The position numbers were made by a program, and so were the translations under genes. A stretch of 63,988 nucleotides of DNA, the filler included, from Basidiobolus ranarum (taxonomy: Eukaryota), in assembly GCA_040143965.1 (NCBI GenBank). It is 4 parts of 4 records of this genome, joined end to end, with 100 filler letters (N's around TTAATTAATTAA, not from the genome) between each part and the next. Parts side by side here need not be neighbours in the genome. Positions count along the whole stretch, not along the records: positions 16,361 to 32,612 come from JASJQH010007224.1; 3 more parts are not named here. One strand, written 5' to 3'. This document shows positions 12,812-49,061 of the stretch, piece by piece (positions within the stretch are counted from its first letter, which is position 1; every line of letters starts with the position of its first letter). The notes below the pieces were generated by a model. The model ran no database searches, had not been told where the DNA came from, and was given only the letters and a program-made list of their open reading frames with translations.

Positions 12812-15800
12812 TGATTGCTAGACCTGATGATATAACCTGCACAAGCTGAGTAGAGGCTCCTGTAAATAGGCGTATACTAGAGTGGTTTGCCCAAAAAGTA
12901 ATGGACTAGAAGGATAATGTCACTTGGTACTTTAATATTAAAAGAGAACACCTAATTATGATATCGGACAAACAGACAGCAGCACCTAAATCAAATATAT
13001 AACTATTCGGAAGTGACACAAACATGATATTCCAGATGAAGTAGGCCATCTGATAGGCGAACGGGGGATCCTATATTTGAATGGATCTATGGCAAGGATG
13101 AATAGATACCTGTCTCACAAATACAGGACCACATGCTACGACAGGGTGAATACTATCATGATCAGATCCCATTTTAAATTGACTATTTATCCACCGCACC
13201 AAGAAGACCTTCTAACCATGCCCCAGTATTTGAATCAGCCTTCACTGCCCGAAATGGCCGATGTCCTCAGTAGTTCATTTCATCGCTGCTAGCCCGCGAA
13301 AACAGTGCGTGCTTATGCTTGGCCTTGGTTCAACACAAATACCTATGTTTTAATTAGACCGGGTTTTGGCAGGCTTTCTTGTGCCTGATAAAGCGGCATC
13401 CTGATCTCTTTGACACTTGGTTGAGCTTAGCGATCCGTCAGACAGTTATCATTAACGCCGCACAGGTGCGACACTTGACATATCGTATATGTCTCACGAG
13501 CGCAGTGGAAGCCTGTGTGAAGGGGAGAGTCTGGAGATTACATTGGTACGGTTATATGACCACTTTATTCCAGGATTCAAAGAATTAGTGTTTCTACTTT
13601 GAGAAGAAAACCCTTACCAAATATAGAAAGCGAGATACAATAGGGTAGCATTGCAATCATTGGACTCGGTTTAGTTTGGCACAAACGTGAAGATAACTTG
13701 GTGACGATGAGGATAATAAACTTGGTTTCACTCGGACATGCCTGGGGATGTAGATGCCATAGATATACGTGTGAGTTAGTGGCTATGTTGCGAAGAAATT
13801 CCCTTATCCATGGTATGTGGAGCATGATTAAGGAATAAACCAGACTTGCCCTGAAGTTTGGGTAATAAAAAATATCAGGAGGTTACGTCGTATGCCATGA
13901 TCACACAGACCGGAACGCCATGGTTACTCAGCTCCAGATCCACCGGGTTTAGCTCCAGCTTGGATACCAGATGCGCCTCCCGTCAGTCAAAAAACAAATA
14001 TCCCATTCCTCACGCGACAACTTGCGTGGCCACCTACACGCCTTTTGTCTAACTTGACGTCTACGCCTGAGCTTTTCAGGTATCCTTCAAATACAAAATG
14101 GCCTTAGTATCTTCAGATCAACTTCGAGAGGAGGAAGAAATCAAGACCACTGGTGGAATGCAACCATTCGTGTTTGAGCTCAGAGAAAGCCAGCCCAATC
14201 AACAATCTCGGGTCAATACCCACTCATCATTGCACCGTTGATGCGAATGGTACCAATCATCTGTGCTTAAGCCATAATCTATGGTCGCCATATGGAACCC
14301 TCATGGCATAGAGATATCGATAATTTTAGGATTGCCTTTTACCTATTCGTATTGTGCAAATTGATGTCACACTGCAGCTTCAGGGTAGGCAAATGGATTA
14401 GACTCGGTTTCTCGTTTGCAACTCAAAATAATTAAGACAGGTGGGCGTCGGCTGCCTGATTAATGCTTCTCTCAAGATTTGGATATGCCCCATACTTACT
14501 ACTTCCTACAAACTGGAGTTACATCCATAGCTCTCTATGGGTGACACCGTGGTAAATTCCATGTTGAATTCGTCATGGTACCACCAACCTTGCAGATAAG
14601 ATACAATTTACATGAATGCTTGCTCCAAGTGTGCGCTATGTTCCAAGCCTTGGGAGTAACCGTGACTTACCATCACTCAGCGGCACGCTCTGAGAAACCT
14701 TTAAAGAAATTCCATCGAATATCGATACAGACTTAACACAGGTTCCTTTAATCCTAGATCACTGCTAGATTGGATCCTAGGAATGACTCTTAGACAATGT
14801 ATGGGTAGAAGTTACACTAACATCCAAAAAGATTCTACGGGTAGCTAGGAAACTTCGCTTCAACAACCGGAGGACTCACTCTAAGTTGTGATTCACACAA
14901 ACAGTCGTCTGCTCACTCAAGCCCTCTCCGGGTAAACGTTTTAAGGTGCACTAGTGACGTGATTTAAAACCCTGTCTATGTTACGAGAGTGATTAGAAAC
15001 ATTAGCGAATGTGTAAAACCGGTTTTACTTGGTCGACTTCCTTCTGCACTAGAGAAACTTGTTAGATCAAATCAATGTTTGTACATTTCTATATGGAGTC
15101 TTAATTTGAAATAGCGCAACCCAAGTCTATTAAAATACTACTGTAGCACACCATCTAGGGATTGCCTGCTTAATTCATTTCCTCAGTAATCCAGACTGTT
15201 GTTCTGAGTAACACTGGATAAAACTTTGCAAGTGCTCACTTGGTGGATTGTATAGGCATATTCAGTAATGAGCTCTTCACTAACGTTCAAAATTTTCATT
15301 TGTTCGTGGTAACGATACACTGCATCTTGGTACTCCATAGCTTCCTAGACCCCGCCTCTAGGGACGCTTTAAGTCTTGATATATTTCACCTAGAAAGTCG
15401 TCAAGCAGTAGTAGGCTCAATGATACCTTTGTGTAGTTGGATGGTGTTAATTGGGTGCTGTTTGGGATTCAGGTTAAGCCTAACAATTTCATCTGTACAA
15501 TTGGTTTTAGATTTGAGAGTAATTGACACCGACCGATTGTTATTCCCACTACATCTGATGTCTCAACTGAAAAGTCTATTGTTCAGTAGCACATTCAGTA
15601 AATACATGTCTGACTAAAACCCTTATGACGATAGTTTCCTAATCATGAGCACAGATCAACATAAAATATGTGCCACTGCTGAATGTCAAATGGAATAATG
15701 CTAAGGTCCATAATTTGATTTGACCGCTATCATGTCGTTAATCTGTTTAAAATTTCCATCATACAGAACACCATTGGCTTCATCATTGACATGAATGCCG

Positions 15801-16260: not shown

Positions 16261-16360
16261 NNNNNNNNNNNNNNNNNNNNNNNNNNNNNNNNNNNNNNNN
16301 NNNNTTAATTAATTAANNNNNNNNNNNNNNNNNNNNNNNNNNNNNNNNNNNNNNNNNNNN
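16261..16360. other. Artificial contig linker (N44-TTAATTAATTAA-N44)
   Basis: 100-nt N run with a central six-frame stop linker; identical copies at 32613 and 48962. Confidence 0.97.
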
Positions 16361-16422
16361 GTATGTTTTAGCTTTTGTATTTTCATTTTTGCAGTTTACT
16401 AAGTATTAAGTATAACTTTCTA

Positions 16423-17271
16423 GGCGGTCGTGGAGGTGTTGAAAAGCGCGGTGGATCCCGTGGTGGACGTGGAGGTGCCAGAGGAGCCCGTGGTGGTGCT
16501 AAAGTTATTGTTGAACCACATAGACACGAAGGAGTTTTTGTTGCCCGTGGTAAAGAGGATTTACTTGTCACCAAGAATCTTGTTCCTGGTGAGGCTGTTT
16601 ATGGCGAGAAAAGAATCTCTGTTGAGGTGCGTAGACAATCAAAATACATGCGTTCATTTTCTTAGTCTTATTGTTTATATAAATAGGGCGCTGATGGCAC
16701 CAAGGTTGAATATCGTGTTTGGAATCCATTCCGTTCCAAGTTAGCTGCTGGTATTTTGGGTGGCGTCGATAATATTCACATCGCACCGGGTAAAAAAGTG
16801 CTTTATCTTGGCGGTGCTTCTGGCACCACTGTCTCCCATGTAGCTGATATTGTCGGACCTGAGGGCACTGTGTATGCCGTTGAATTCTCACACCGTCCCG
16901 GTCGCGAGTTGATTAATATGTCAAAGAAGCGCACAAACGTAGTTCCAATTATCGAAGATGCTCGCCACCCACAAAAATATCGTATGTTTGTTGATATGGT
17001 TGACGTTATCTTTGCCGATGTTGCCCAACCCGATCAAGCTAGAATTATTGCTTTGAACGCTCATCAGTTTTTAAAAAATGACGGACATATCGTTATTTCT
17101 ATTAAAGCCAATTGTATTGACTCGACTGTTGATGCTGCTAAAGTATTCGCTTCTGAGGTCAAAAAGCTTCAACAAGAACGTATCAAACCTCAAGAACAAT
17201 TGACCTTGGAGCCTTATGAACGTGATCACGCTCTTGTTGTTGGTGTGTATCGCCCCGTTGTTAAGAAATAG
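16423..17271 (+). CDS. NOP1: Fibrillarin, rRNA 2'-O-methyltransferase (5' exon(s) missing)
   Basis: Contig begins with intron donor GTATGT; GAR tail [27 protein letters not shown], intron 16627-16686, [38 protein letters not shown]. Confidence 0.97.
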
Positions 17272-17998
17272 AAAGATGAACATTATATTTCATGGGATTT
17301 AGTCTTTCAGAGAAAAAAATAGACCAGAGCCAATTATATAGCCACTCTAAACCACTAGTTACACCTATCAATTTGTATCAAAGCGACATTTTAATTCTTT
17401 CCAATTCATAGATAAATAAACCTTTACATCCAGATGATCAACCTTCTGATCTAGTTACCTGCTAACCTTGGTATAACTCCCAAAGAACTAGTATTTCAAA
17501 AAGCACCAGTGTTAAACCATAAGGAGAACAATCACGGAGTTGTAATGCATTCTAGATCAAACAGTATACAGAAGGGGGAATTCCTATTTAGGATGGAAAT
17601 GAATATGGTAGAATAATATTGAGCTTTGATACTCAACAGCTTATTCGATTGTGTTAGGCAATTGTGTTGGGTTAGGAGTATGAACATCCTTGATGAACAT
17701 CCTTGATTGACTTATTACTTGCATTCTCACCAAATAACCTTCAGAAACCTGTTTACAACTGTGATTGTCAACAGTACGCGAAACTGTGAACAGTGTATTA
17801 CTATATTGACATGGTGACTTGAATCCAACCAATGGGAAGCGTTGCGTTTTATTACCAAATATATCGATGTACCACTATCAGCACCTCAAAGTGTGCTACA
17901 AATATGGAAGGTTTTCCCTCCAATGATATGCTACTAGAAATTAAAGTATAAAAAGGCGCCATTGAAACGGTGATTAATGATCTCCTACGCGCGTGAAC

Positions 17999-18640
17999 AT
18001 GACTTTTATTTCATTTAAAATTGAGAAATCTAAAGGGGTCAACATCACACACATAGTCGACATTACCGATGTGCTAACAGACGAAGTGATATACCGGAAA
18101 GAGCCCAGCGGACTGATGAAAGAAATGGATTCACTCAGCCTTGTTGTCCAAAACAACGACCTACCCTTGTGGGAGGCCAACCCTGTAAGAAGGTCGACAG
18201 AAATTCGCTTAGACAGCCGTTGTTACAAATCCCAGGTGGTATTTAATAATGGAAATCGACGCCCAACTTGGTTTTATTTCATTTGGAAAAATACTACTTT
18301 TACTTGGGAGCGCTCTAAAGCTCAGTACTTATGCTTTGCCCCGGGTGAGCGTTTGGTAGCCAAGGTGGATATGAACACAAAGTTGATATCTATATTAGAT
18401 AAAGTGGAAAAGTTTGCTCCAGGGACCGAATCTTTGTTAGTTTTAATTTCTTTAAAGGTCTTGGGAAGAGGTAAGCTACCTTTGAGCGAAGTATTTCGCC
18501 CAGTTACATCAATGTTTGTCAAGAAGAGGAGTGCTAGAAGTATTGCTGAATGTTACCCTGATGAATCTGACTCTTATCATAGTGGTTATAAGCCAAGTAA
18601 CTTTGAGAAGCAAATGATGGCTCGTTCAAGAACGGCGTAA
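17999..18640 (+). CDS. Uncharacterised protein, possibly tubby-C/DUF6593-like beta-rich domain
   Basis: Intronless ORF (first ATG 17999); TATAAAAA at 17947; pattern FYFIWKNTTFTWE...LVAKV...ESLLVLISL. Confidence 0.55.
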   Translation: MTFISFKIEKSKGVNITHIVDITDVLTDEVIYRKEPSGLMKEMDSLSLVVQNNDLPLWEANPVRRSTEIRLDSRCYKSQVVFNNGNRRPTWFYFIWKNTTFTWERSKAQYLCFAPGERLVAKVDMNTKLISILDKVEKFAPGTESLLVLISLKVLGRGKLPLSEVFRPVTSMFVKKRSARSIAECYPDESDSYHSGYKPSNFEKQMMARSRTA

Positions 18641-19330
18641 CGATACTTTGATTTCACGTAGATACATACACTTTTGTTTTACCACTCTTCCCGGATTTGC
18701 AAGCAACCGCCATTGATCTGTACAGTATAAATTGTAATAAAGTCGGATTATCCTTAAAGCCATAAAAAAGAACATTCCAATGTTTATGGAAACGGTCCTC
18801 GAGTATTTTGGTTGAGGTACCGGGATTTATTTGATTAGTCCAAAACTGTATTCGAAATGTGGTGCGTCCCAAATAGATGAATCGAAAGTTCTAGCAGGGA
18901 AACCTTAACTTTATTGACAGCCAATCAGCTCTTCACGTCTTATTTACCTGTGTACAAATCGCTAATCATCATAATTAATTATGTGTGTAATGTATTCAAG
19001 ACACCAATGAACATTCATACTGTTCGCTCGCCAATGGAGTGTATCATGAATTTTGCTTATTGGCAATATTTGAACCGATTGAGCCGAAAGAAATCCGCGG
19101 TTACTCGTCACCGAAATAACCGGCCTTTATCTGTTCATATGGAACCATATCCTTATCTTTTTAATCCAAAATTACGATAATGGTAGTATCCCAACATTGA
19201 TACCAATGTTTAAGTCAGTTGTTATCAGTAGCTGCTGATCGATCCTAGTATATAGAAACTGTCAATATGGGTAGGACTGACCAACTCTGGTCATTTGACA
19301 GGTAATGCTTATCATTCTCCATGATGATAA

Positions 19331-19361
19331 TTGACTCATCAAGAACTCTCAACTATATAAA
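19331..19361 (+). promoter_or_regulatory. AP-1/Gcn4-type site (TGACTCA) plus TATA box upstream of the 66-aa ORF
   Basis: ttgactcat at 19331-19339 and tatataaa at 19354-19361, about 50 nt before caaaATG at 19409. Confidence 0.5.
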
Positions 19362-19408
19362 GTGACCACTATTATCTCAATCCTCTAAGCTTATCCCGAG
19401 ACATCAAA

Positions 19409-19609
19409 ATGCAACACCTCTTACACAAGACACACTCTAGTGATTTCATCCGTCTCACTCCTGAACAGACCTCTATTGAGCCTTCTGTACTATCTTCTGC
19501 CACAAAGGAGGAACATCCAGACGCTCTAACCGCCAGTGTTGATTTTGATTTTATTCGGTTAACACCTGAGGAAAAGAGCACCTCATTAAGCGCTCAATCG
19601 GCCTCTTAG
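19409..19609 (+). CDS. 66-aa microprotein with two DFIRLTPE repeats
   Basis: The peptide repeat is identical, yet 6 of 8 codons differ synonymously; TATA box and good start context. Confidence 0.7.
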   Translation: MQHLLHKTHSSDFIRLTPEQTSIEPSVLSSATKEEHPDALTASVDFDFIRLTPEEKSTSLSAQSAS

Positions 19610-20267
19610 GTTGCCTAACTCCATACATATAATCATTTGTATATTTATGCTTGTTAATTTCTTTCTGAAACTCTTTTCAATTAATCCGATCAAAACCAAA
19701 TCTTAAAAATAAATCATTTCGATTAATTAATTTAATTTCGATAGTTCATTATATCCATCTCCATCTCCACAAGCATCATCATTTGACATAGAGGGGTTGG
19801 ATTGATATGAAGCCTTAGCGACACCTGCACATGAGTAAGATATTTCAGAAGTAGTATAGCTCATGTCAAGATTTGAGTAATTCAAATCAGTCATAATATG
19901 TGTACCCCGACATCCGGATAAATCATATCCTTCAATCAACGCCACATCAAGTTTGTACTAAATAATTCCATTTTTCATCAAAAAAAAATTCATATAGCTA
20001 AAGGGTAGCTGAGGCGTTTTTTAAGGTCTCGTTTATTTGACAAAATCCTATTGATATAACTAAATGGTGAAAATTACAGTGAGCTTGCTTCGTGATATGA
20101 AATTTACGGTAGTGAAGGTGGTAGAAAAATTATATGAAAGAGGAACTAGTAGACACAGTAAAGGAGTACAACAGAAACTGAGTCATGAATGTTAGTTAGA
20201 ATGCTGTCCATTGAATGTAGTGTTCGGATCGATATTCTATAAATTAAGTAATGATAATAAACACAGC

Positions 20268-21266
20268 TTAGTATCTTGAAGCTGATACTATGTAGCCCTT
20301 GTTGGTAATCACTCCACGATTACGAATGACGGAAGAATACTTCAGAACCCATCTAGGAGTTAGCTTGGCTTCTTCAACAGAGGAGACAATTTTATGCTTG
20401 GCCAGCAAAGCATTGAAACTTTCGGCTGGGAGTATATCAGAGGAGTCCTGGTGGGTAAGTAATTTAATATTATGCACCTTAGCATAAGCAGCCATGTCTG
20501 TGGGTAGACCGGAACTTGACGCAAGATCGATATGGTTAATTTGAGGGGCAATTTGCACTTTCTTCGACAAGCGTTCAAGCTCTCCAGTCGAGAATTCACT
20601 AACTCCCAACGATTTGATGACTCCTTCTTTATAAAAATGTTCAATTTCATTCCATGGAGGAATGATATCCGACATGTCTTCACCGGAATCCTCTTGAGAG
20701 TTAGATCCAGGGAATGCGAGAACATAATCATGAACATGGTTCACACCCAGATGTCTTTTAATATATTCAAGAGACTCGGATATATATGAAGCAGGAAAAC
20801 GGGAAGTGCCGGTCGTATCAGGTAAATAGAAGAGCTTAACTATAAATTTATGATTTAGTATATGTATGCGCCAAAGTACAATGAAGTGGCATATTTACCT
20901 GAAACCTCAAGGTCGTCCAAATCCTCTTGATCAAGCTGTGACATATGACGGGTATCGGGGATTTCCAAATAGTCACTTTCAGGGATATAAAAACAAGACC
21001 CATGCTCTTGGAGGAAAACTTGTAATGCTTCGTCGAGAGAAGAAATAAGCTATAAAGATAAAGTCAGTAATGATATTTAGTATGGAAGCTCAAACGACTA
21101 TTACCTCTTCTTGAGATCTACGCAGAGCACTATTGCGAATTCCAGAGGCACCGGCTTTCATAAGGTTTCCAGAATATACGAGGCATTCTTTAATGTGACA
21201 AACAGGAACTGTTTTGGTTCGAGCAGAACGAGTTTCGGTATAGTTGAGTGAAGCAGTAGTCAACAT
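20268..21266 (-). CDS. GCLM: Glutamate-cysteine ligase modifier (regulatory) subunit, aldo-keto reductase fold
   Basis: Exons give MLTTASL...LVYSGNLM, VKLFYLP, W..IEHFYKEGVIKSLGVSEF, APQINHIDL, IKLLTHQD and PRWVLKYSSVIRNRGVITNKGYI (diagnostic GCLM C-terminus); two introns. Confidence 0.9.
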
Positions 21267-21431
21267 AATAGATAATTCTGGGTAGGGCGAATAAAAATGG
21301 AGCAGTGTAGTTTTTCCAATAAAGCAGTCGTGCTAAAGCTGGTCAACAATAAAACAAAAGATAGAAGAGAGACTCGCTGGTGAATTCGGAGATTTAACAA
21401 ATTCTCTTAAATAGCTCCGCAAAATCTATGA

Positions 21432-21566
21432 TTAGTAACCCAAACTGGAGTTTTGTATCATGATGAGACAAGCATAATATGGAATAAGTAGAAAATAGGG
21501 ATATTCGCAGGCAGGACCGAAAAAAAAGGTTTAAAAACGTTTCATGAAAGAGGAATGGATTAGTAA
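21432..21566. promoter_or_regulatory. Two putative Yap1/Pap1 response elements (TTAGTAA/TTACTAA) in the GCLM promoter
   Basis: TTAGTAA at 21432-21438 and 21560-21566 upstream of the GCLM ATG; a third at 22219-22225. Confidence 0.45.
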
Positions 21567-23576
21567 TGATCGATGACACTAATGTAATCTCGAGTTGTTA
21601 CACATAGAATCATCGATGATTGGATAGCTCTATGACCGGATAAACACCTATTGGTTCATCGAATAAATAAGGAAATTTTTAGATAAGATTAAATCAAGTA
21701 TGCCTTTGATATCCACTGAACCAATTATATACATGTTGCTTGTAAAGGATCCTGAGGTTTGGTAATTCCATTCTATAGCAAGCTAACTTACAGAATTCAA
21801 GGCCTATTAGGTAAATACAAAGGCTTCCGAATTGACTGGTTTAGTAGTATAGAAAATCTAGCTATACTCAACCGGGAATAAGAACACCAGAACGTCTCTT
21901 TAATGGTGAAGCTAGTTTGTATTGCACTGAAATCCGACTACCAGCACTCGTCGATTGCATCGAAATATACCCCTATCTCTACTTAACATCTAAACCGTGG
22001 TGGAAAGATATTCAGAAAGACAAAGAATAAAACAAACGTTCAATAGCTTTCTTGGGCTATGAAAGGGTTCGTAAACGTCAATATTACTCTACTCTGCGAA
22101 AGATTTAGTACGCGATCGTATTACTACTGTGCACTATTAGGAATCTCATTCCGCATACTGGAACGAACCTGATTCTATTGCAAGTGACTTGGCCAATTCT
22201 ATCAGACTGTACCATCTATTAGTAAGCTTTTTCAAATTAAAGTGACTTCGGAAACTCTAGAGCCCCCCCCCATTTTCATTAAGACACGAATGGCAAAATA
22301 AGCTCTATCTACTTCAAAGCCAGCCTTAAACAACCTAGATAGAGTAGTTCTACAGACATCTCATTACGTTGCTAATACTACTTCATATTGTTTCGGATTA
22401 ACTTTGTTCCCACAAAGTTAGGTCCATCTAGCAAAAATCATGTCTTGGTTATGGGAGGGTTAAGACTACGCTTTCAGATTTTGATGCATTGTTAATAGTG
22501 GAATAGACATTCGGAATAGACAATTGGAAAACCTGGTTAATGGTTAATGTAGTTGGATCATCGTTTCTTGTCCGCAATCTGCCATTTATAGAGAATAATC
22601 GGTGATGATATGAAGAGTTTACTAAATACCACAATTTATCCAGTAGGGTTAGGTATCTGCTCAATCAGCGGGTAATCAATGAAGATGAGATTGTATGCTA
22701 GAAAGCAGTGTCATTTAGGATGCCTGAACACGTAACATCTGTATAACAGATTCTTTATGCATCTTATGTGGCGCGTCAATAACACGTTCTGATAGGTCAA
22801 CTGAATTCCATGTAAGTTTTGGTGATTGCCTCGATGTATGTTCGGAGAAACTGTTTCCAGGCATCGCGTATTTCCAAGACGTGGGCCAGGAATTTCAACT
22901 ATTGCATATCCTGAATGAGTTTGTCCTAATTAAATATTCCATCTGATTGTACAGACAACTAGGTGCTTGCACTCCGCATCATCAAAATGCTGGCTAGGCT
23001 GTGTTGAAAAATTCTCAACCCCTTGAAAAAAAACCCCAAAATGTTTATATTCTTCAAATCACTTCAGGGATGATGAGTAACAGATTTATATTGATTGGCT
23101 TAGTTTATGGGGCTTATCACGAGATCTTGACCACCTTCATCCAACCACAAATGCTGGTTCCGACGTTTCTGGATCTTCAGATTCAACTGAGGATTCGCTA
23201 CGAATCCTCCCAGTTTCAACAAAACAATTTTTTTAACTTATTTCCTTCTTTCCTTCTGCCCACCTACAACTACCTTTACTCTCTTCTCGTTTTCTTTTTT
23301 TATATCTCCCCATTTACTCCATCCATCGGTTTACCTTTTCTTTCGTTTTTAAACACAATCGAGGATCGTATTCATTATTTCTTAGTTTTTTCGTTCGTCT
23401 GATACTTTTTTTTGGAGATCTACTGATCAGACTTAGAGTAAATTTGGTTAGTTGAAATATCGTCTTATATTAAAATTATATATATTATATTTTCCCAATC
23501 TAACTTCATGTGTATTAGTTATATCCGATCTTCTATTCAAAAGCCACAACTTATTAGATCGCCTTAACTGCTTTCA

Positions 23577-26223
23577 ATGATCAGCATGGCTAATAGCTTG
23601 GAGTTGAAAGCATATCCTGTTGAAGAGATGTCCTTGGAATCAGGGTACTGTTTTTTGCAGATATCCTCCGTTAGCGTGTTCATTGTCCTTACCCTTGCAT
23701 TTTTTTAGACCAGAGGTGAAGACTTTTACCGAATTTCCAAAAACAAATAGCGTCGAGTTGAATGTTGGTAGATCTTCCCCAATCACACCCACTGACATGG
23801 TATCTGAAGTACTTCAATCGAACGAAACCAACTCTGACAGTGGGTCACTGGAGAAAGACAAATCCATAAAAGAGACCGAATCTGAAATTTTGGATGAGCA
23901 TATGGATTTGGTGGAAGTTAGTCACACTGATAAAAATAATTCACCTGAGAACGATCTTTCAGAAGTCGATATACACATGTCAGATGTAGTTTCTGGGCCC
24001 TCGATTACTATAGATGATAATTCTCTCGTTGAAACCTCAGAATTTAAGCCTAGTACCGAGTCAGAACAAGTCCCCTTATCACCCACGAAATCAGATTCTA
24101 TTAGTAAATCTTCAACTGATGCTATTACTACAGAACTCAATCCTCAAACCCAAGACATAGTTGATACAACCTTGGAGTCAAACTGTGTCCCCGAACCACA
24201 GTTAGATGAGCCGACAAAAACCGACAAATTACACAGTTCTGAATCGGAGAAACAAGTACCAGATGTCGCACCAACAATGGAACCCAAAGAGGAGCCTGTT
24301 GCTACATCTGTATCTTCAGCCCTCACATCGACACCCCCTTTTAGCGACAGTCGCTCACATAAGAGACCCAGTTATGATGACCCATCGTTAAAAAGATCTC
24401 ACAAAATGTCTAGGCTGAGTGAAATTGAGCATGCGAAGGTGCTTAAAGAAGTAAAACCTTTGATTTCAAGAAGATATTCTAATACATTTTATCCAATATA
24501 GGCATTGGTTGGTACATTTGCATCAACCGCTGTTAGTCCTCCCCGTCGTCCCAATATAACGCGCGAGCAGCTCAAATATTGTAGCGCAATTCTCAAGGCG
24601 CTTAAAAGACATCGTGATGCTGGTCCTTTTTTGAAACCTGTAGACCATGTCAAAATGCAAATTCCAGATTACCCTAAAATTGTTAAAAACCCTATGGATT
24701 TGAGTACAATTGAGAAGAAACTTAACAATAACCAATACATAACGGTTGACGATTTTGTCACTGATGTTCGCCAGGTCTTCGAGAACTGTTATTTGTATAA
24801 TGGTCGGGAATCTATTGTGTCTACTTTTGCACAGAATCTGGAAAAGGTTTTTAATAATCAACTTCGAAAGATGCCCCAAGCTACACCCAAGATTGTAGAG
24901 AGTACTAAGGATGAAAGTTACAGTGAAGGAAGACCAAGATCTCGTCCTAGAAGCAATTCTAGAAGAAGTTCCATTGGATCCAAGGGCAGACGAGAAAGCC
25001 AGTCTTCCATTACCTCAACCAAACGCGGAAGCTTAAAGAATCCACTCCACGACGTCCATTATAAATTCTGCATGTCTGTTATAAAAGAGTTCTTTAAGAA
25101 AACTCATTCACATTATGCATATCCGTTTTTAGAGCCAGTTGATTGGAAAAGTTTGGATATTCCTGATTACTTGTCCATTATTAAGCATCCCATGGATGCA
25201 TCGACCATCAAAAGGAATCTTGAGAGCGGGCTTTATTCTACTACTGAAGAGTTTGAAGCTGATGTACGTTTGATGTTTAGAAATTGCTACAAATATAACC
25301 CTCCCAAAACACCTGTATACACTATGGGTCAGACATTGGAGAATATTTTTAATGCAAAGTGGGCACAAAAACCATCTCTTCCTCCACCAAAGGAACCTAC
25401 TCCAGAGCCAGAACCTGAGGAATTCTCAGAGCAGGAGTCCTCGGACGAAGAAGATGACAAACACGCACAACAAATCGCTGAGCTTGAACGGCATTTGGAA
25501 TTTATGTCCAAACAGCTTGCTTCCATGAAAGGTGCAGCTCGTGAAAAGAAAAAGAAAGAAAAAGTCAAAACTCCGGTTAAAACCAAGACACAGGCTTCTA
25601 AAGCACCAAAAGTCACTAAAACACCCAAATCTAGCAAGACCAAAACCACCCCCAAATCGAGATCTCGCAAGCCTTCAGCACACGAATACAGCACAGATGA
25701 CGAAAAATATCCCGAAATAACCTTTGAACAAAAGCGTGAGCTTAGTGATAGTATAAACCTACTTCCAGGTGAAAAATTGAATACGGTTGTGTCCATCATT
25801 CATAGCAGTATGCCTCATTTGAAGGACACTTCAGGTCAAGAAGAGATTGAGTTAGATATCGACTCCCTCGACCATCGCACTCTATACAAATTGTACAAAT
25901 TTGTAAGAACCAATGTTGCTCCTAAGCGTGCTAAACCTGCTCGGAAGAACTCTCGGCCACACTTCTCCGAGGAGGAGCAGGCTCGTAAGATTCATGAATT
26001 AGAAGAGAACTTGAGAAAGTTTGAGTCAGCTGAGTCCCATTCTTCTGGTAAATATTTTTACTTTGCTCAAGTCAATATACCTTTAATCACAAAGCTAACG
26101 CAGCCTTATTTGAATTTAGCCAAGGCCGATTTAATGGATGATGACAACTCTGGATCTTCTAGTAGTAGCAGTGGCTCTTCCTCGTCGGGTTCGGATTCGG
26201 ATACTGGTAGTGAAAGTAATTAA
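23577..26223 (+). CDS. BDF1: BET-family double bromodomain + ET domain protein
   Basis: BD1 (PFLKPVD..IPDYPKIVKNPMDL..NCYLYN), BD2 (AYPFLEPVDW..PMDAST..NCYKYN), ET domain (ITFEQKRELS..EIELDIDSLD), SEED-like tail; introns about 23645-23708, 24439-24501 and near 26048-26119; exact start ATG uncertain. Confidence 0.93.
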
Positions 26224-26869
26224 TGCTTGGAACATCTTGTATTTGCTGGCTCTGCGCACATTTTCTTCCGATCGACTTCTTCTCTTTATCTGTACCAAAC
26301 GTCTTTATTCACTTTGTGGTTTACCTGTTTCACACCTTTCATCTGTTTTTTGTCATTATAGCCTACCCGGTTCGTTCGTTTGTTTGTGTTGTTTATCTGA
26401 ATGCGTTTGGTTAATGTAAATGTGTAATCGTAGTACTATTTCTTTCTGCCATCTTTTTTTGTTTTGAACATTTCTCTTCATCCAACATGCTTCAAAAATT
26501 GTGAAACTTTAGAAACGAATTAAAACTCACGACCATCCGATTATTTTCGAAATAAAATTGTAATAAATAGTATCCAACATGATTAGTACGAAACCATTTA
26601 CGTATTTCGTGGCCTTCACTACTTGATCTCCATCACGTGGTGCTGTATAGTGACTTCCTCATGTCAAAGTCATACTACTGCAGAAAGCGGGGTATCAAAC
26701 TAGTAAATTATACTATTAAGAGCTCACTTCTATACTAAAGGAGTCAAGAGACCACTTTACAGGGTTTCTTGTTTTTAAACTTTTGTAGCTTATAGTTCAT
26801 CCTTTTGTTTAGTTATTTGGGCTTTTACTCTCCTTTTTCTCAACACGTTAATTCACTTTAGTCAACATT

Positions 26870-29488
26870 ATGGGCATTTTGGTTCAAGCCTCACTTGCCC
26901 AAGATGCGGTTTTCTTTGCTGGTGATAAAATATCTTGTACCATAACTTTTTTTCACCAACCTTCTAATACTGCACACCCTTTATCCAAACCCACTGACAC
27001 GAATGAACATTTTTTTGGTGACTCCCCCACCGACCTTGGAAGTATACCTGAAAGTGGGAGGTCCAGTTTAGACTCTATATATACGCAGCAATCTACAGAT
27101 TCTTTAGATAATCGCTTTACCAATCTCTTGATAGCTTCTAATTTTCCACCAAATTGTGAGACCAAGCTTAGCCCCGAACTTTTTAACAATTCTTCAACTA
27201 CGGATAGAAATCCAGATACGAAAATTTATCAGGATTCAGAGGACGCAAGTTTATTTAATTTCAAGTTTGTAAGGAAAAAGACGGCTTCTTTTTCGTCTTG
27301 GTTTAATTTTTCCGAAAGTTCAGATACTTCGAATTTAAGTGGAAACTCACCAGGTCCTGGTAAGAAGTAACTTTCTCTCTCTCTCTTTCGATATATTTAC
27401 TTGTCAGAGAGGGCTCCTTTATTGATTATATGGTAGTTGTTACATAGATATAAATATCACTACCCATAATATGGATTTTTTTCTGCAACTACTTATCGGC
27501 AAAAGGTGCTTTTTCATTTTAGACTATACTAAGCCTGTTGTCAATGGATATGGGAATCTTCAACGAACTCAATCTTCAGATGGTTTAATAGCCTCCTTGA
27601 GTTAGTGAATTCTATATTTTCACGTTCGTGATTATTCCGTATGATCCCAACCCTTCGATTAATAAGAAACCCTCGTATTTAGATCTGAAAGCAGCGACTA
27701 TGTTGAGATCATCCTCCTCTCCGTGCGCTAGTTTTAAAACGGAGTATCTTATGTGGGGGTTTGCTCAAGTCGTAGGACACTTTGTTATTAATGGAAGCAT
27801 CGTTAAATTCAATGAGTTTGAGCCACTCAAATCCAGAACCATGTATCGATCTGCTAACGGTATAGGTTCTGGGGGTACTGTGGGTGGAGGTATTATTGGA
27901 GTTCCTTCAGCTGGCGGAACAATATCATCTGTAGCTGAACTTCAAAAAGGAGGTTTGTTAGACATAATTGAGATTTAAGGGTTCTCTCATTGAAGGTTTG
28001 ATCTTAACACTCCACTTTGGGGGTTTTTTCAATCAAGACAGTAAGATGCTTCCGGTACTCTCCACACCGCCATCAATTCTCTTTTGCGACCTCGAATTGG
28101 CACCAGGAGAATCCAAAACATGTTAGTATGCTCTCAATAGATTCAATGATAGATCCGGTTAGCTTATATACGATGTCTAGATACTTTCGAGCTTACATTA
28201 CCTTCTGTCTTACCGCCTTCTCATCGGGGAAAGGCTATACGTATAACGTATAATCTTCTGTTGGGGGCACAACGTGGTGGACTGCATACACGAGCGCAAA
28301 TATTCCAAATGCCATTTAGAATCTTCTCCAAGTTAAATTGTAAAGGCTTTATAGGTCTAATAACACTTCTCCCGATGTTCTTCTAAAGTTGGTTTTTCAA
28401 AACTTTAGCACAGGGATTACCCAGTCCATACGATTTAATGAATCCTACCATCATAAATAAGGATGAAGCGATTAGCAAATGTTTGGATAAGAAATTTGCG
28501 GTGGAGGAGGAGGAGGCAAAAAACGAAGGTTGATAAATGATGTAGTGACTCCAGTTGCTGTTGACATATACATTCTAACCCGATATACCTAGAGATCTCT
28601 ACGGAAGCAATGATCGAAAAGATTCTCTCTCTATCTTTGTCGGATGAAGATCCAAATTCCGAAAAACTATCCAATATAACCTCGTTATCAGTTACCGAGA
28701 ATTCCAGAGATGTTCTCAACTTAGGAAGATCACTTGAAATCGCTTCAATGATATGTCAAAAGTTTAGCAAGGGTACTCTACATTATCGTCGTTGTTAGGT
28801 TGGTAGCCAGATATTCTCTAACATGGGTATGTAGTTATGTTTAATATTAGCAAAGGAGATGATTCGTTTGCCCAATTCAGTATGATGAAGACGGCTTTTC
28901 GACTGGGGGATGTTGTCACAGGCACCTTGACATTTATGAGCTCTCTCGAACGTAGTTATCAGGTAGTTGGGTTGTTTAGCAAACATATAGAACTTGAATT
29001 AACCTCTTCTTTCATCAACTGATCTGAGGTTTCCGTTACGCTAGAATCGATCGAAACTGTAGATGAATTTTTTGCAAACAAAACACCCCAACAGACCGAA
29101 ATTTGTACCAAGAAGATCCACGCTGAACAACACGAGTTTTGTCTCAACACGTTACGCACGAACATCATGCTTAATATCCCACCACATTGCACACCTGGCT
29201 TCAGAACTTCGGCTGGTAATGTACCACTCAAGTGTGATGTTGATTGAATACAATACTAACGGTCGCTTAGTTTCTTTGGAGTGGTATTTGAGAATTAGAT
29301 TAATTATCGGGATGAAGGAAAAGCATCCTATGACACTAAGCCACTACGACGCTAATCACACACATCTTAAAGCCATTGATTATGCCGATTCGGAAACCTT
29401 TGATTGTCGGGTTCCGATTCGTGTTTATCCTGTAAGCTATGATTCGGCTCGGATCTACAATAATCTTCAGATATTCCCAATTTCTTGA
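26870..29488 (+). CDS. RGP1: Rgp1, subunit of the Ric1-Rgp1 Rab6/Ypt6 GEF, multi-exon
   Basis: VFFAGDKISCTITF, LMWGFAQVVGHF, LPVLSTPPSILFCDLELAPGESK, LPPSHRGKAIR, AFRLGDVV, IPPHCTPGFRT, VSLEWYLR, ETFDCRVPIRVYP. Confidence 0.88.
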
Positions 29489-29843
29489 TGTATATTTTCT
29501 TTACTCTTTCCAAATAATAGTATATATATCCATTCGAATTCTTTACCAAGTCGGATTCTGAGACCTGACCCGACATTTAATATGCTTGTAATTCTCTGTG
29601 CCTGTAATTCTCGATTATCCACTCAACATATCCATCTGACCTAACCTATTTAGTAAATTGAGCAGACTCAGCTGGCCGAGAAAGGTCGAGACTGGTGAAA
29701 AGTAGTTGGAAAGAGAATTGGAGTTGGAAATCGAATGCGGCGGAATTTAATGTATACATAGCATTTATTAACAATATTGGGGGGGGTTAGGGTTAGTGTG
29801 ACTGGAGTGAATATATTATACGATCAATTAGTACCAACTAGTC

Positions 29844-31071
29844 TTAAATAAAGAGGGAAACGGCAATAGCTACTACTACAGCAAGCCCACTTCTGATAGT
29901 ATTGGCGGATCCTTTTTTGTCGCTGTGATCATCTTTGTCGCTCTTATCATCTTTGTGGTCTTTGACCTCCTTGTCGTTCTTTCCATTGTCGAGATCCTTT
30001 TCTTCGGTGCAATTAAATTTAGTGCTGTTAGTGACACTTCTGATAAAGGTTCTAAACGTGGCACAATCGAATTTGTCCGAGGACTTGACACTTGAAATTC
30101 CCCCGATTTTTTTCAAATCTGGAAGAGTAATATTAGAGATAGGTCCAGAGACATTCAAACTACCATAAATTGTCTGAAGATCCTTGAATCCGTCAATTAC
30201 ATTCAAAGCAGAGTTATTCGCCAAGAACAAAGAACCACCAATCTCCTCAAGCTCTGGGAAAGAAATATTCTTCAATTGACTGTTACCAATGAAACTCAAA
30301 GTAGCTCCAATATGAGTAACATTGAGTTCCACCTCCTCGAAGAAATTGTACGAGAAATCGAGGACATTGCTGACTTTGTTGAGGCTATTCAAGTTCAAAT
30401 TGGTGACATTGTTGATGTTGAGATTCTTGGAAGTAACAAGTTTTGGAGCTGAGAGTTCAAACTTCATATTGTTGTTAACAACAGTGAGATCACCATTGAT
30501 GGAGGTCAAATTGGTTAAGGCCAATGTCTTAAGATTGCGATTAGCAGCGACAAAAATGGTATCCAACTCATCGAATTTAAGACCATCCAAAGTTGCAATA
30601 CCGTTGTTGTTGATGTCCATTTTGTTAACCTTCTCTAAGCCGGCAGGGAAGTTCATTTGCTTAAGGTTAGAGTTATTGATGATGGATACCTCTTGTGCGG
30701 AGGTAAGTTTGGCGATATTGATTTCACCAAGGTTGACATTGTCTTGGAAATTCAAGATGCGAGCGGACTTGAGAAGAGGAAGAGTCACGCTTTGTAACTT
30801 TTTATTGTTACTCACGGTCAAGTTTCCAACACTAGTCAAGCCAGCGAGGTTGATATATTCCAACTCAGTATGTGAAATAGCAACTCCATCAAAGCAACCA
30901 TTCAACGTAGTAAGATCAGCTGCGGACTTGACGACCACCTCCTTCTGGCACAAGACTTCGGCTAATAAACAGAAAGTAAATAAATGAACCAAACAACTAT
31001 AAAGTAAAGCAGAACATACCGTTGGCAACAATGGCCAAGGATAAGAGAGCGAGGAGTTTGCAGTTATACAT
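29844..31071 (-). CDS. ECM33: Ecm33/Pst1/Sps2-family GPI-anchored cell-surface protein (receptor L-domain repeats)
   Basis: Exon 1 MYNCKLLALLSLAIVAN (signal peptide), intron about 31019-30962, repeats such as ISFPELEEIGGSLFLANN, many N-x-S/T sites, C-terminal KGSAN plus hydrophobic GPI signal. Confidence 0.85.
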
Positions 31072-31661
31072 GATTGAAATGTTGATGAAACTCTGACAGC
31101 TGTCAAGCCTATAAATACTTGGAATAAGGTACCAAGTTTGGTATAGTAGTGTATACTGTTTCCAAACCCGGTAATGCTCCTTTTTTTTGTTGATTACATT
31201 TTTATTCTGATCTGCACTGGATGTAGAAGACTTAGATTGGAATTTCGAGAATCTATTGAATCCTTGAAGAATCGATACGAACATCCAGTAAGGCCGCGTA
31301 TAACAAAGCCTCCTAACTTGAGTTTCAATCGGATTCATTCTAATTCTTTCCCTCGTTTACTGCATCAAGTACACCATTTGTTTATGTCTTTCTCAGCCGT
31401 CCTATCCCTTTGTATTCATAAGGTTCGATTAAGAACCAGCTAACCCTGGTACGGATAGATAAGAGATCGAAATGGAACTCTCGATGTTCGAGACAGAACA
31501 CTACATGACATATTAGGTCGGAAAAATCCCATTTCCACTGTTCACCAAACAAACGCGTGTCCAATTTGCTATTTATGTGACTGACAAAACATGGACTTGA
31601 TATTCCATTTATGGCTAAGCTCATTCTATCCACCAGTTGAAAATTTTGTCAGAGAATCATT

Positions 31662-31759
31662 TGAATAAATCGAGTATTATCGAGAATTGGATGAATAAAT
31701 CGAGTATTATCGAGAATTGGATGAATAAATCGAGTATTATCGAGAATTGGATGAATAAA
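31662..31759. repeat. Perfect 30-bp tandem repeat, 3.3 copies
   Basis: Unit TGAATAAATCGAGTATTATCGAGAATTGGA at 31662, 31692 and 31722, plus a partial copy. Confidence 0.95.
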
Positions 31760-32287
31760 CCTAGTTCTTTAATAAACAAAATATCAATCACTTAAGGTTA
31801 GCTACAACTTCACTGCAGATCCAGTTCAAGTACTAAATATAAATAATACTAACCCCAAAAATAGGGAATATACCCCCAAAATACTCGAACACTTCAATCA
31901 AATTGCCCACCAAAGTGATGGATATGTTGAGATACTTCAAATCACTATACATTGACATTTTGAATGTCTCTGAAATAGATTTAATCTGGTTTTTACATAC
32001 ACTATTGCTTCTAGCTGATTCTATTTTTTAGCATGCGTTTTTCAAATAACAATATCTCTACATTCAATTTATGATTGAACTTGATATTTAATAATATGAA
32101 GGTGATTCCACAACTCGTGATGATGTTACATACATCTTCAAAATCATCTGAATTTCAATATAGTCAATTTTTATCCATCATACTTTGTTATATCGATTTT
32201 GATAACTTATGCTAGAACCCCCAAACTCGATATGCATGTTCCTGGGACCCTCCTCAATACATTCTACACGTTTGTTTGTTTACATAC

Positions 32288-32612
32288 TGACAAACTATAA
32301 ATGTCAACTTTCTACTCAATAAATCAATAAGTGAAAACCACCAATTTCTCTAATTCTCCAAACCACTTCCAACAGGCTCCCAAATACTCTAACAGTTTCT
32401 ATATACACTATTACTCATAACTGATGCATTTTTTTGCATTTATTTTTCAAATGACAATGTCTCTGCACCCACTGCATGATTTAACTTACTATTCAAGACA
32501 TAGCTGTTAAAGTATTTGGGAGCCTGTTGGAAGTGGTTTGGAGAATTAGAGAAATTGGTGGTTTTCACTTATTGATTTATTGAGTAGAAAGTTGACATTT
32601 ATAGTTTTATCA
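32288..32612. repeat. ~108-bp near-perfect inverted repeat at contig end
   Basis: 32288-32395 is the reverse complement of 32504-32612 with only a few differences; the ~108-nt spacer resembles 31993-32098. Confidence 0.9.
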
Positions 32613-32712
32613 NNNNNNNNNNNNNNNNNNNNNNNNNNNNNNNNNNNNNNNNNNNNTTAATTAATTAANNNNNNNNNNNNNNNNNNNNNNNNNNNNNNNN
32701 NNNNNNNNNNNN
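32613..32712. other. Artificial contig linker
   Basis: N44-TTAATTAATTAA-N44. Confidence 0.97.
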
Positions 32713-48961: not shown

Positions 48962-49061
48962 NNNNNNNNNNNNNNNNNNNNNNNNNNNNNNNNNNNNNNN
49001 NNNNNTTAATTAATTAANNNNNNNNNNNNNNNNNNNNNNNNNNNNNNNNNNNNNNNNNNNN
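48962..49061. other. Artificial contig linker
   Basis: N44-TTAATTAATTAA-N44. Confidence 0.97.

Follow-up and report, generated by a model that had tools for sequence, protein, structure and literature searches.

Does an open reading frame (ORF) of Basidiobolus ranarum that encodes the same octapeptide twice, in largely different codons, represent a genuine gene, and what might its product do? The ORF occupies positions 19409-19609 of the plus strand, stop codon included, in a 63,988-nucleotide stretch of assembly GCA_040143965.1, hereafter called the window, and codes for a protein of 66 residues. The window consists of four pieces, each ~16.25 kb long, and between them stand spacers (16261-16360, 32613-32712 and 48962-49061) composed of 44 N, TTAATTAATTAA and another 44 N. 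The ORF is found within the piece 16361-32612, which comes from JASJQH010007224.1, and no feature should be read across the joins. Judging from the sequence, it is probably a genuine gene that is translated and in which a duplicated motif is under selection. We lean, by a small margin over doubt, towards a lineage-restricted micro-gene whose disordered product carries two identical eight-residue linear motifs and is a candidate bivalent ligand of the Atg8 type.

A repeated octapeptide on diverged DNA

The segments 19442-19465 (GATTTCATCCGTCTCACTCCTGAA) and 19547-19570 (GATTTTATTCGGTTAACACCTGAG) both translate to DFIRLTPE, with a start-to-start distance of 35 residues. They differ at 7 of 24 bases, namely six third positions and one first position (CTC/TTA), with no amino acid change. 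An earlier note on this DNA had reported this 8-mer as encoded twice with seven silent differences in an intact ORF, and both its coordinates and its sequence were correct. The silence of all differences is automatic once an identical peptide has been chosen, and the real test is the frequency of identical 8-mers on diverged DNA. By reading, the two segments have identical translations in this frame alone of the six.

We collected all peptide repeats of at least six residues that occur within one open frame, in the whole window. Other than DFIRLTPE, only a tandem repeat at 31662-31759 was found, the copies of which differ by 0-2 bases. DFIRLTPE is the sole peptide repeat on diverged DNA in these 64 kb. 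The 31662-31759 element is a perfect 30-bp DNA tandem repeat (3.3 copies, 100% matches), open in several frames.

None of 200 first-order-Markov random windows contained an 8-mer repeat with at least three base differences. The same random windows yielded on average 0.035 repeats per window for 6-mers and 0.505 for 5-mers, and extrapolation from these two rates gives a chance rate of ~2e-4 per window for 8-mers. In a neutral-drift test of DNA duplication, seven random substitutions in copy 1 would keep the peptide with a probability of ~1e-5.

We also compared the DNA of the two copies and of their flanks at the 105-base offset. Identity is 17/24 in the motif, 10/30 in the upstream flank and 10/39 in the downstream flank, the flanks being at background level. 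The 17 identical bases are no more than the 18.2 of 24 expected of two independent back-translations with the codon usage of this genome, and identical codons number two of eight between the copies, against 3.06 expected. Thus, beyond what the peptide demands, the DNA has kept no sign that the copies share an ancestor. It is because the codons have fully turned over around an unchanged peptide that the motif is visible from a single genome. The pattern fits an old duplication that selection for the peptide sequence would have maintained. This island of peptide identity on maximally diverged DNA supports the earlier proposal that a short linear motif is under purifying selection. The case for selection is now stronger than the one that the earlier note could make.

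Coding signals of the ORF

The reading frame of the ORF opens at 19361, directly after the TAA within TATATAAA according to the ORF scan, and ATG 19409 is its sole ATG. This ATG is the first one past the TATA-like word and has the context caaaATG, with A at -3. Using codon log-odds trained on 17 ORFs, the longest in the window that do not overlap one another, we obtained a score of 0.218 bits per codon for the ORF, the best of the six frames (-0.17 to -0.72 for the other five). This value falls inside the range of the training ORFs (0.03-0.36). The ORF ranks fourth among the 78 ATG-initiated ORFs of 50-110 codons that were not used for training (mean 0.012, standard deviation (SD) 0.101).

Composition and predicted disorder of the product

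The 66 residues include 12 Ser, 7 Thr, 10 acidic, 5 basic and 4 His residues, without a hydrophobic stretch. The AlphaFold2 model, computed with no alignment, has a predicted local distance difference test (pLDDT) score of 63.5 and a predicted template modelling (pTM) score of 0.16, with one 3-residue helical turn as its only secondary structure. The mean pLDDT per ten-residue block is 74 for residues 11-20, 61 for 21-30, 58 for 31-40, 74 for 41-50 and 70 for 51-60. Model confidence is thereby highest in the motif-bearing blocks (74, 74 and 70), compared with 50-61 elsewhere. The ESM Atlas model of the microprotein has a pLDDT of 0.25. The modelled profile is that of a disordered chain carrying two short binding elements, and both models are consistent with the disordered spacer described in the earlier note. 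The absence of a signal peptide, also claimed there, agrees with the polar N-terminus MQHLLHKTHSS, by reading only, with no predictor run.

Search for relatives

No Pfam-A family was matched by the microprotein at E<=0.1. In a word-indexed search of 5.8 billion clusters, the only candidate of 36-116 residues was the ORF itself, and none of 311 candidates among longer proteins reached E<=10. An exhaustive HMMER search of 1.84 billion representatives returned the ORF itself and three long repeat proteins, P0002, P0003 and P0004, with whole-protein E-values of 6.3e-10, 5.5e-06 and 2.6e-05, respectively. In local phmmer runs, these proteins showed 14, 8 and 8 matching stretches, none of the 30 being individually significant; the best single stretch scored 12.3 bits, with an i-Evalue of 2.4e4. 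We rejected the three proteins as homologues, as their whole-protein E-values are sums over weak repeat matches. More generally, an internal repeat in a short query can bring phmmer E-values down to 6e-10 by the summing of 8-14 meaningless matches. Automatic homology calls on microproteins can be misled by such summed-score E-values.

The PDB sequence search gave only a designed trefoil, at E 1.2. ESM Atlas searches with the whole protein and with residues 36-62 gave no usable feature matches, and the structure rows are meaningless at a pLDDT of 0.25. Metagenome contigs were searched with the microprotein (586 pattern matches) and, for syntenic loci, with the family alignment of the neighbouring 213-residue protein described below (156 matches); no relatives were among them. 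A tblastn search of the microprotein against the window detected no paralogue, the next-best match, at E 0.05, being in the Ser-rich tail of the BET gene described below. The statement of the earlier note that no family was recognized is thus borne out by the Pfam, protein-collection and PDB searches. In the parts of the literature available as searchable text, FIRLTP, FIRLTPE and DFIRLTPE occurred in no relevant context, a paper on nematode G-protein-coupled receptors being deemed irrelevant. The literature returned on microproteins and the LC3-interacting region (LIR), as far as its accessible text goes, consisted of reviews, none of them on such a protein.

A putative bivalent ligand

Since constraint is confined to the two identical 8-mers, which a flexible tether connects, the simplest mechanism would be bivalent docking. 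The DFIRLTPE copies would each dock into the same pocket on a folded domain of the partner, and the microprotein would act as a bivalent ligand that might clamp, bridge or competitively occupy two partner molecules. Among the motif classes that we compared with published examples, the partner class that would best fit the motif is Atg8/LC3. The Thr-Pro beside the core could let a proline-directed kinase tune the binding.

The LIR consensus is given as [W/F/Y]-X1-X2-[I/L/V] in the consulted part of PMC5538626, which also tabulates the LIRs of NBR1 (SEDYIIILP), KBTBD6 (DDFWVRVAP, with Arg at X2), ULK1 (TDDFVMVPA) and JMY (ESDWVAVRP). The NBR1 LIR fragment used for nuclear magnetic resonance is SASSEDYIIILPE, and tandem LIRs on a single chain are known, as in the EPG5 tandem fragment (both from the accessible sections of PMC12087653). 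In both copies of the B. ranarum motif, F-I-R-L fits the consensus core. It is preceded by acidic or phosphorylatable residues, S-S-D before copy 1 and V-D-F-D before copy 2, and the models place it in an accessible, disordered segment (pTM 0.16 by AlphaFold2, pLDDT 0.25 in the Atlas). The narrower pattern [DE][WFY][VIL].[VIL].P, which was devised post hoc from the motif already seen, occurs four times in the 127,972 six-frame codons of the window, two of these being the motif copies, and is absent from 6,554 residues of long ORFs. One further sequence that resembles the ULK1 LIR, EFVMVPPT at 14566, was dropped as a chance match in a 63-codon frame without a coding look.

Atg8 as the partner is a speculative and rather doubtful proposal. 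The full version of it is less probable still. It posits a stand-alone tandem-LIR microprotein, with two Atg8-binding motifs on a 27-residue tether, that would serve as a bivalent clamp or competitor setting the level of free Atg8 and would be switched by proline-directed phosphorylation of the core-adjacent Thr. Proline-directed phosphorylation at the Thr-Pro beside the core is a plausible switch, whether the motif is read as a LIR or as a phospho-switch.

Weighing the alternatives

Several observations weigh against a translated gene encoding an Atg8-type ligand. No homologue was found in any protein collection searched. The collection contains annotated proteins of Basidiobolus meristosporus and B. 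ranarum, yet no orthologue; this absence counts only weakly against the gene, since annotation often passes over small ORFs. The promoter-like words TGACTCA and TATATAAA, which are present upstream together with caaaATG as noted earlier, are both at chance frequency in the window (13 observed against 12.06 expected, and 5 against 5.53, respectively). Neither a promoter nor inducibility is shown by them, and the label 'inducible' that the earlier note had given to the gene is unsupported. At ~2e-4 per window, very large scans would yield some chance cases of such repeats. The basic acidic-plus-core LIR pattern is common, with 231 occurrences in 127,972 codons, or ~0.12 per 66 residues; because it arises so often by chance, a match to it says little. 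Lastly, K or R put at X2 of the PLEKHM1 LIR lowered GABARAP binding, according to the part of PMC5538626 that deals with this position.

The missing homologues, the chance-level promoter words and the extrapolated chance rate, which is not negligible across a very large scan, would also suit a chance open frame in intergenic DNA, the 8-mer being either a coincidence or a dead coding relic. In addition, the codon score is merely ~2 SD above that of the other small ORFs. Nevertheless, we consider this explanation unlikely. None of the 200 random windows reproduces the 8-mer repeat, which belongs to an ORF complete from ATG to stop, in the sole coding-like frame of six and after an ATG-free leader. 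A dead relic would moreover be expected to collect non-synonymous changes beside the saturated synonymous ones. It is much less probable that the ORF derives from a helical-repeat protein with units of ~35 residues, as a fragment, an exon or a remnant acquired by horizontal transfer; L-T-P-E would then be a helix N-cap that occurs once in each unit. Bacterial P0002, P0003 and P0004 were indeed matched in the exhaustive search, and the best aligned stretch spans one full period of the query. The P0002 units read ...LELSPEQTSQLF..LLAATKDEH.. and those of P0003 DDF..VL..LTPEQ, and these matches show the word L-[ST]-P-E-[QE] to be common at unit starts in helical-repeat proteins. However, the best single stretch is the insignificant one reported above, and P0002 has a period of 36 by our own count, compared with 35 here, so that HMMER requires a gap. 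Both models are devoid of helices beyond the single 3-residue turn, and no further repeat units are found in the flanks in any frame. Furthermore, no strong splice donor was read in the ORF, and the upstream gene is complete without it.

If the ORF is a real gene, its motif might be something other than an Atg8 ligand. A proline-directed phospho-switch, in which the Thr of L-T-P-E, Thr17 or Thr52, is phosphorylated by a CDK/MAPK-type kinase, appears improbable, though less so than the helical-repeat origin. D-F-I-R-L would then be a docking or recognition element, and the protein either a phosphodegron substrate marked at two sites or a small inhibitor or adaptor activated by phosphorylation, akin to the heat-stable phosphatase inhibitors. 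Fbw7/Cdc4-type degrons consist of hydrophobic residue(s), T-P and S/T/E at +4, and are not followed by basic residues. The L-T-P-E-Q-T of copy 1 fits this pattern, whereas copy 2 (T-P-E-E-K) has Lys at +4, which places the degron register outside the conserved block. Thr-Pro followed by Glu is kept in both copies, and the protein is small, acidic, Ser/Thr-rich and disordered, like small phospho-regulated inhibitors. On the other hand, S/T-P sites are very common, the conserved block reaches five residues upstream of the Thr, beyond the need of a simple kinase site, and no Pfam family, including ENSA/ARPP-19 and the phosphatase inhibitors, was matched at E<=0.1. A two-core precursor of a ribosomal peptide, be it a ribosomally synthesized and post-translationally modified peptide (RiPP) or pheromone-like, from which DFIRLTPE would be excised twice and modified, is very unlikely. 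Conserved cores with diverged spacers are typical of multi-core fungal precursors. Ustiloxin, phomopsin-type and MSDIN precursors are fungal RiPP precursors, with short repeated cores and diverged spacers in the multi-core ones. Basidiobolus is also noted for its unusual secondary metabolism (PMC7466969), but the term 'RiPP' does not occur in the accessible text of that source, the methods of which describe the use of B. meristosporus RNA-seq. The earlier note had listed a two-core precursor among its options. The protein has no dibasic KR, KK or RR site in its 66 residues and only two cores, and its N-terminus is polar rather than hydrophobic, by reading. Furthermore, UstYa/DUF3328, tyrosinase, methyltransferase and prolyl-oligopeptidase are absent, by Pfam, among 14 neighbouring ORFs. 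These were hand-picked ORFs of at least 64 residues from pieces 1 and 2, a choice that small or spliced genes may escape; their Pfam families are fibrillarin, aldo/keto reductase, BET bromodomain, Rgp1 and leucine-rich repeat, nine of the 14 having no family.

Another partner that we considered is the ET domain, as a BET gene with a canonical one (…EEIELDIDS…) is located 5 kb downstream of the ORF. Published ET-domain ligands include the LKIRL of the murine leukaemia virus (MLV) integrase tail (...LKIRLTRE) and the IKLKI of NSD3, in the part of bioRxiv 10.1101/2020.09.21.306696 that was consulted. D-F-I-R-L contains one basic residue, compared with two in the described ET-binding motif. A prediction of the complex between the microprotein and the ET domain (residues 394-481) gave scores of 0.00 and 0.00 and was counted neither way.

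Genomic surroundings

The features of the locus are collected in Table 1. The position of TATATAAA is compatible with a short 5' leader. The AATAAA word is the single copy within 19600-19900, which is weak evidence in DNA of 39% G+C. No strong donor of the GTAAGT/GTATGT type was seen in the ORF by reading its sequence. Rfam had no match at E<=1 in 18400-20500, and a tRNA scan of the whole window found none.

Table 1. Sequence features in and around the microprotein ORF (window coordinates)
Feature	Position	Strand	Remarks
ATG-free leader, 82 bases	19327..19408	+	ATGs at 19305, 19321 and 19324, the next only at 19409
TGACTCA heptamer (AP-1/Gcn4-type word)	19332..19338	+	70 bases 5' of ATG
TATATAAA, candidate TATA box	19354..19361	+	48-55 bases 5' of ATG
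ORF	19409..19609	+	Acidic, Ser/Thr-rich product, predicted disordered
Motif copy 1, DFIRLTPE, residues 12-19	19442..19465	+	From translation
Spacer between motif copies, 27 residues	19466..19546	+	Ser/Thr/Pro/Glu-rich, from translation
Motif copy 2, DFIRLTPE, residues 47-54	19547..19570	+	D-F just before; from translation
AATAAA, possible polyadenylation word	19708..19713	+	99 bases 3' of stop

The ORF lies in a 1.63-kb gap that separates the stops of two convergent genes. The upstream neighbour, 17999-18640 on the plus strand, codes for a 213-residue protein with no Pfam family and with 74% identity, over its full length, to a 213-residue hypothetical protein of B. meristosporus CBS 931.73. 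The match agrees with an early-diverging fungus, as the earlier note had presumed. The two proteins are equally long, so that the upstream gene is complete, and the idea that the small ORF might be its 3' exon was rejected. The only relatives found for the 213-residue protein are three hypothetical proteins of Basidiobolus, at 74%, 53% and 48% identity. In their alignment, 73 columns are invariant, among them those of W-F-x-F-x-W and F-T-W-E-R. By its sequence relationships, the protein adjoining the microprotein belongs to a genus-restricted family of unknown function.

The downstream neighbour is an aldo/keto-reductase-like gene on the minus strand (20268-20894), with its stop at 20268. Its open frame spans only positions 80-187 of the 291 of the Pfam profile and ends 21 residues past the aligned part. 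We presume a similarity of this gene to the glutamate-cysteine ligase modifier subunit. On the opposite strand of the same intergenic gap, 19727-19894 is a 55-codon ATG ORF (76 codons from stop to stop), with a codon score of 0.161 that ranks seventh among the 78 small ORFs. The BET bromodomain ORF (24502-26223, plus strand) codes for two bromodomains and the ET domain. It is preceded in-frame by a 297-codon open stretch, 23608-24498, with a single stop at 24499-24501 between them; this stretch probably represents a short intron or an N-terminal extension.

Significance

If translated, the ORF would be a clean natural case of a protein pared down to two copies of one short linear motif. It would also offer an eight-residue bait for a motif-binding partner in Basidiobolus, a poorly studied gut symbiont and occasional pathogen. 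Searching for intragenic repeats at the peptide level, encoded by diverged DNA, is a practical route to real micro-genes where comparative or expression data are absent. Should the ORF not be conserved in sister species, the repeat would count as a rare product of chance, useful for calibrating such scans. Were the tandem-LIR proposal true, nature would have its own equivalent of the tandem-LIR probes engineered for Atg8, and autophagy regulators would gain a new, minimal class.

Comparison with known systems

Small disordered proteins built on repeated linear motifs are a known kind, of which this is a new and so far orphan member. In the helical-repeat proteins P0002 and P0003, with ~33-36 residues per unit, L-[ST]-P-E-[QE] recurs at a similar spacing, with A-T-K-[DE]-E-H in between, as in the microprotein. 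The microprotein, in contrast, comprises a single period, with no predicted helices beyond the 3-residue turn and no individually significant stretch. The ENSA/ARPP-19/Igo and inhibitor-1/DARPP-32 proteins are small disordered inhibitors of the heat-stable type, the activity of which resides in a short conserved phospho-acceptor motif. Like the microprotein, they are small, acidic or polar, and disordered. They have one motif each, unlike D-F-I-R-L-T-P-E, whereas the microprotein has two identical copies and, by Pfam, no sequence similarity to them. With the multi-core fungal RiPP precursors, it shares a short ORF, an exact peptide repeat and diverged spacers. Unlike them, it has no signal-like N-terminus, no dibasic sites and two copies only.

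The MLV integrase tail (...LKIRLTRE) and DFIRLTPE have I-R-L-T in common. ET ligands alternate hydrophobic and basic residues, which D-F-I-R-L does only half: it has one basic residue, and the ET loop, itself acidic, would be opposite its acidic flanks. The closest likenesses are with the LIRs. The D-Y-I-I-I-L-P-E of NBR1 and DFIRLTPE share the Asp, the aromatic residue, Ile at X1, the aliphatic end of the core and Pro-Glu in register. The W-V-R-V-A-P of KBTBD6 has Arg at X2 like the B. ranarum motif, and a Pro two residues after the core is common to KBTBD6/7, JMY, NBR1 and DFIRLTPE. The known LIRs, however, are parts of large proteins, receptors or adaptors that also have catalytic or cargo-binding domains, whereas here the two motifs are nearly the whole of a 66-residue protein.

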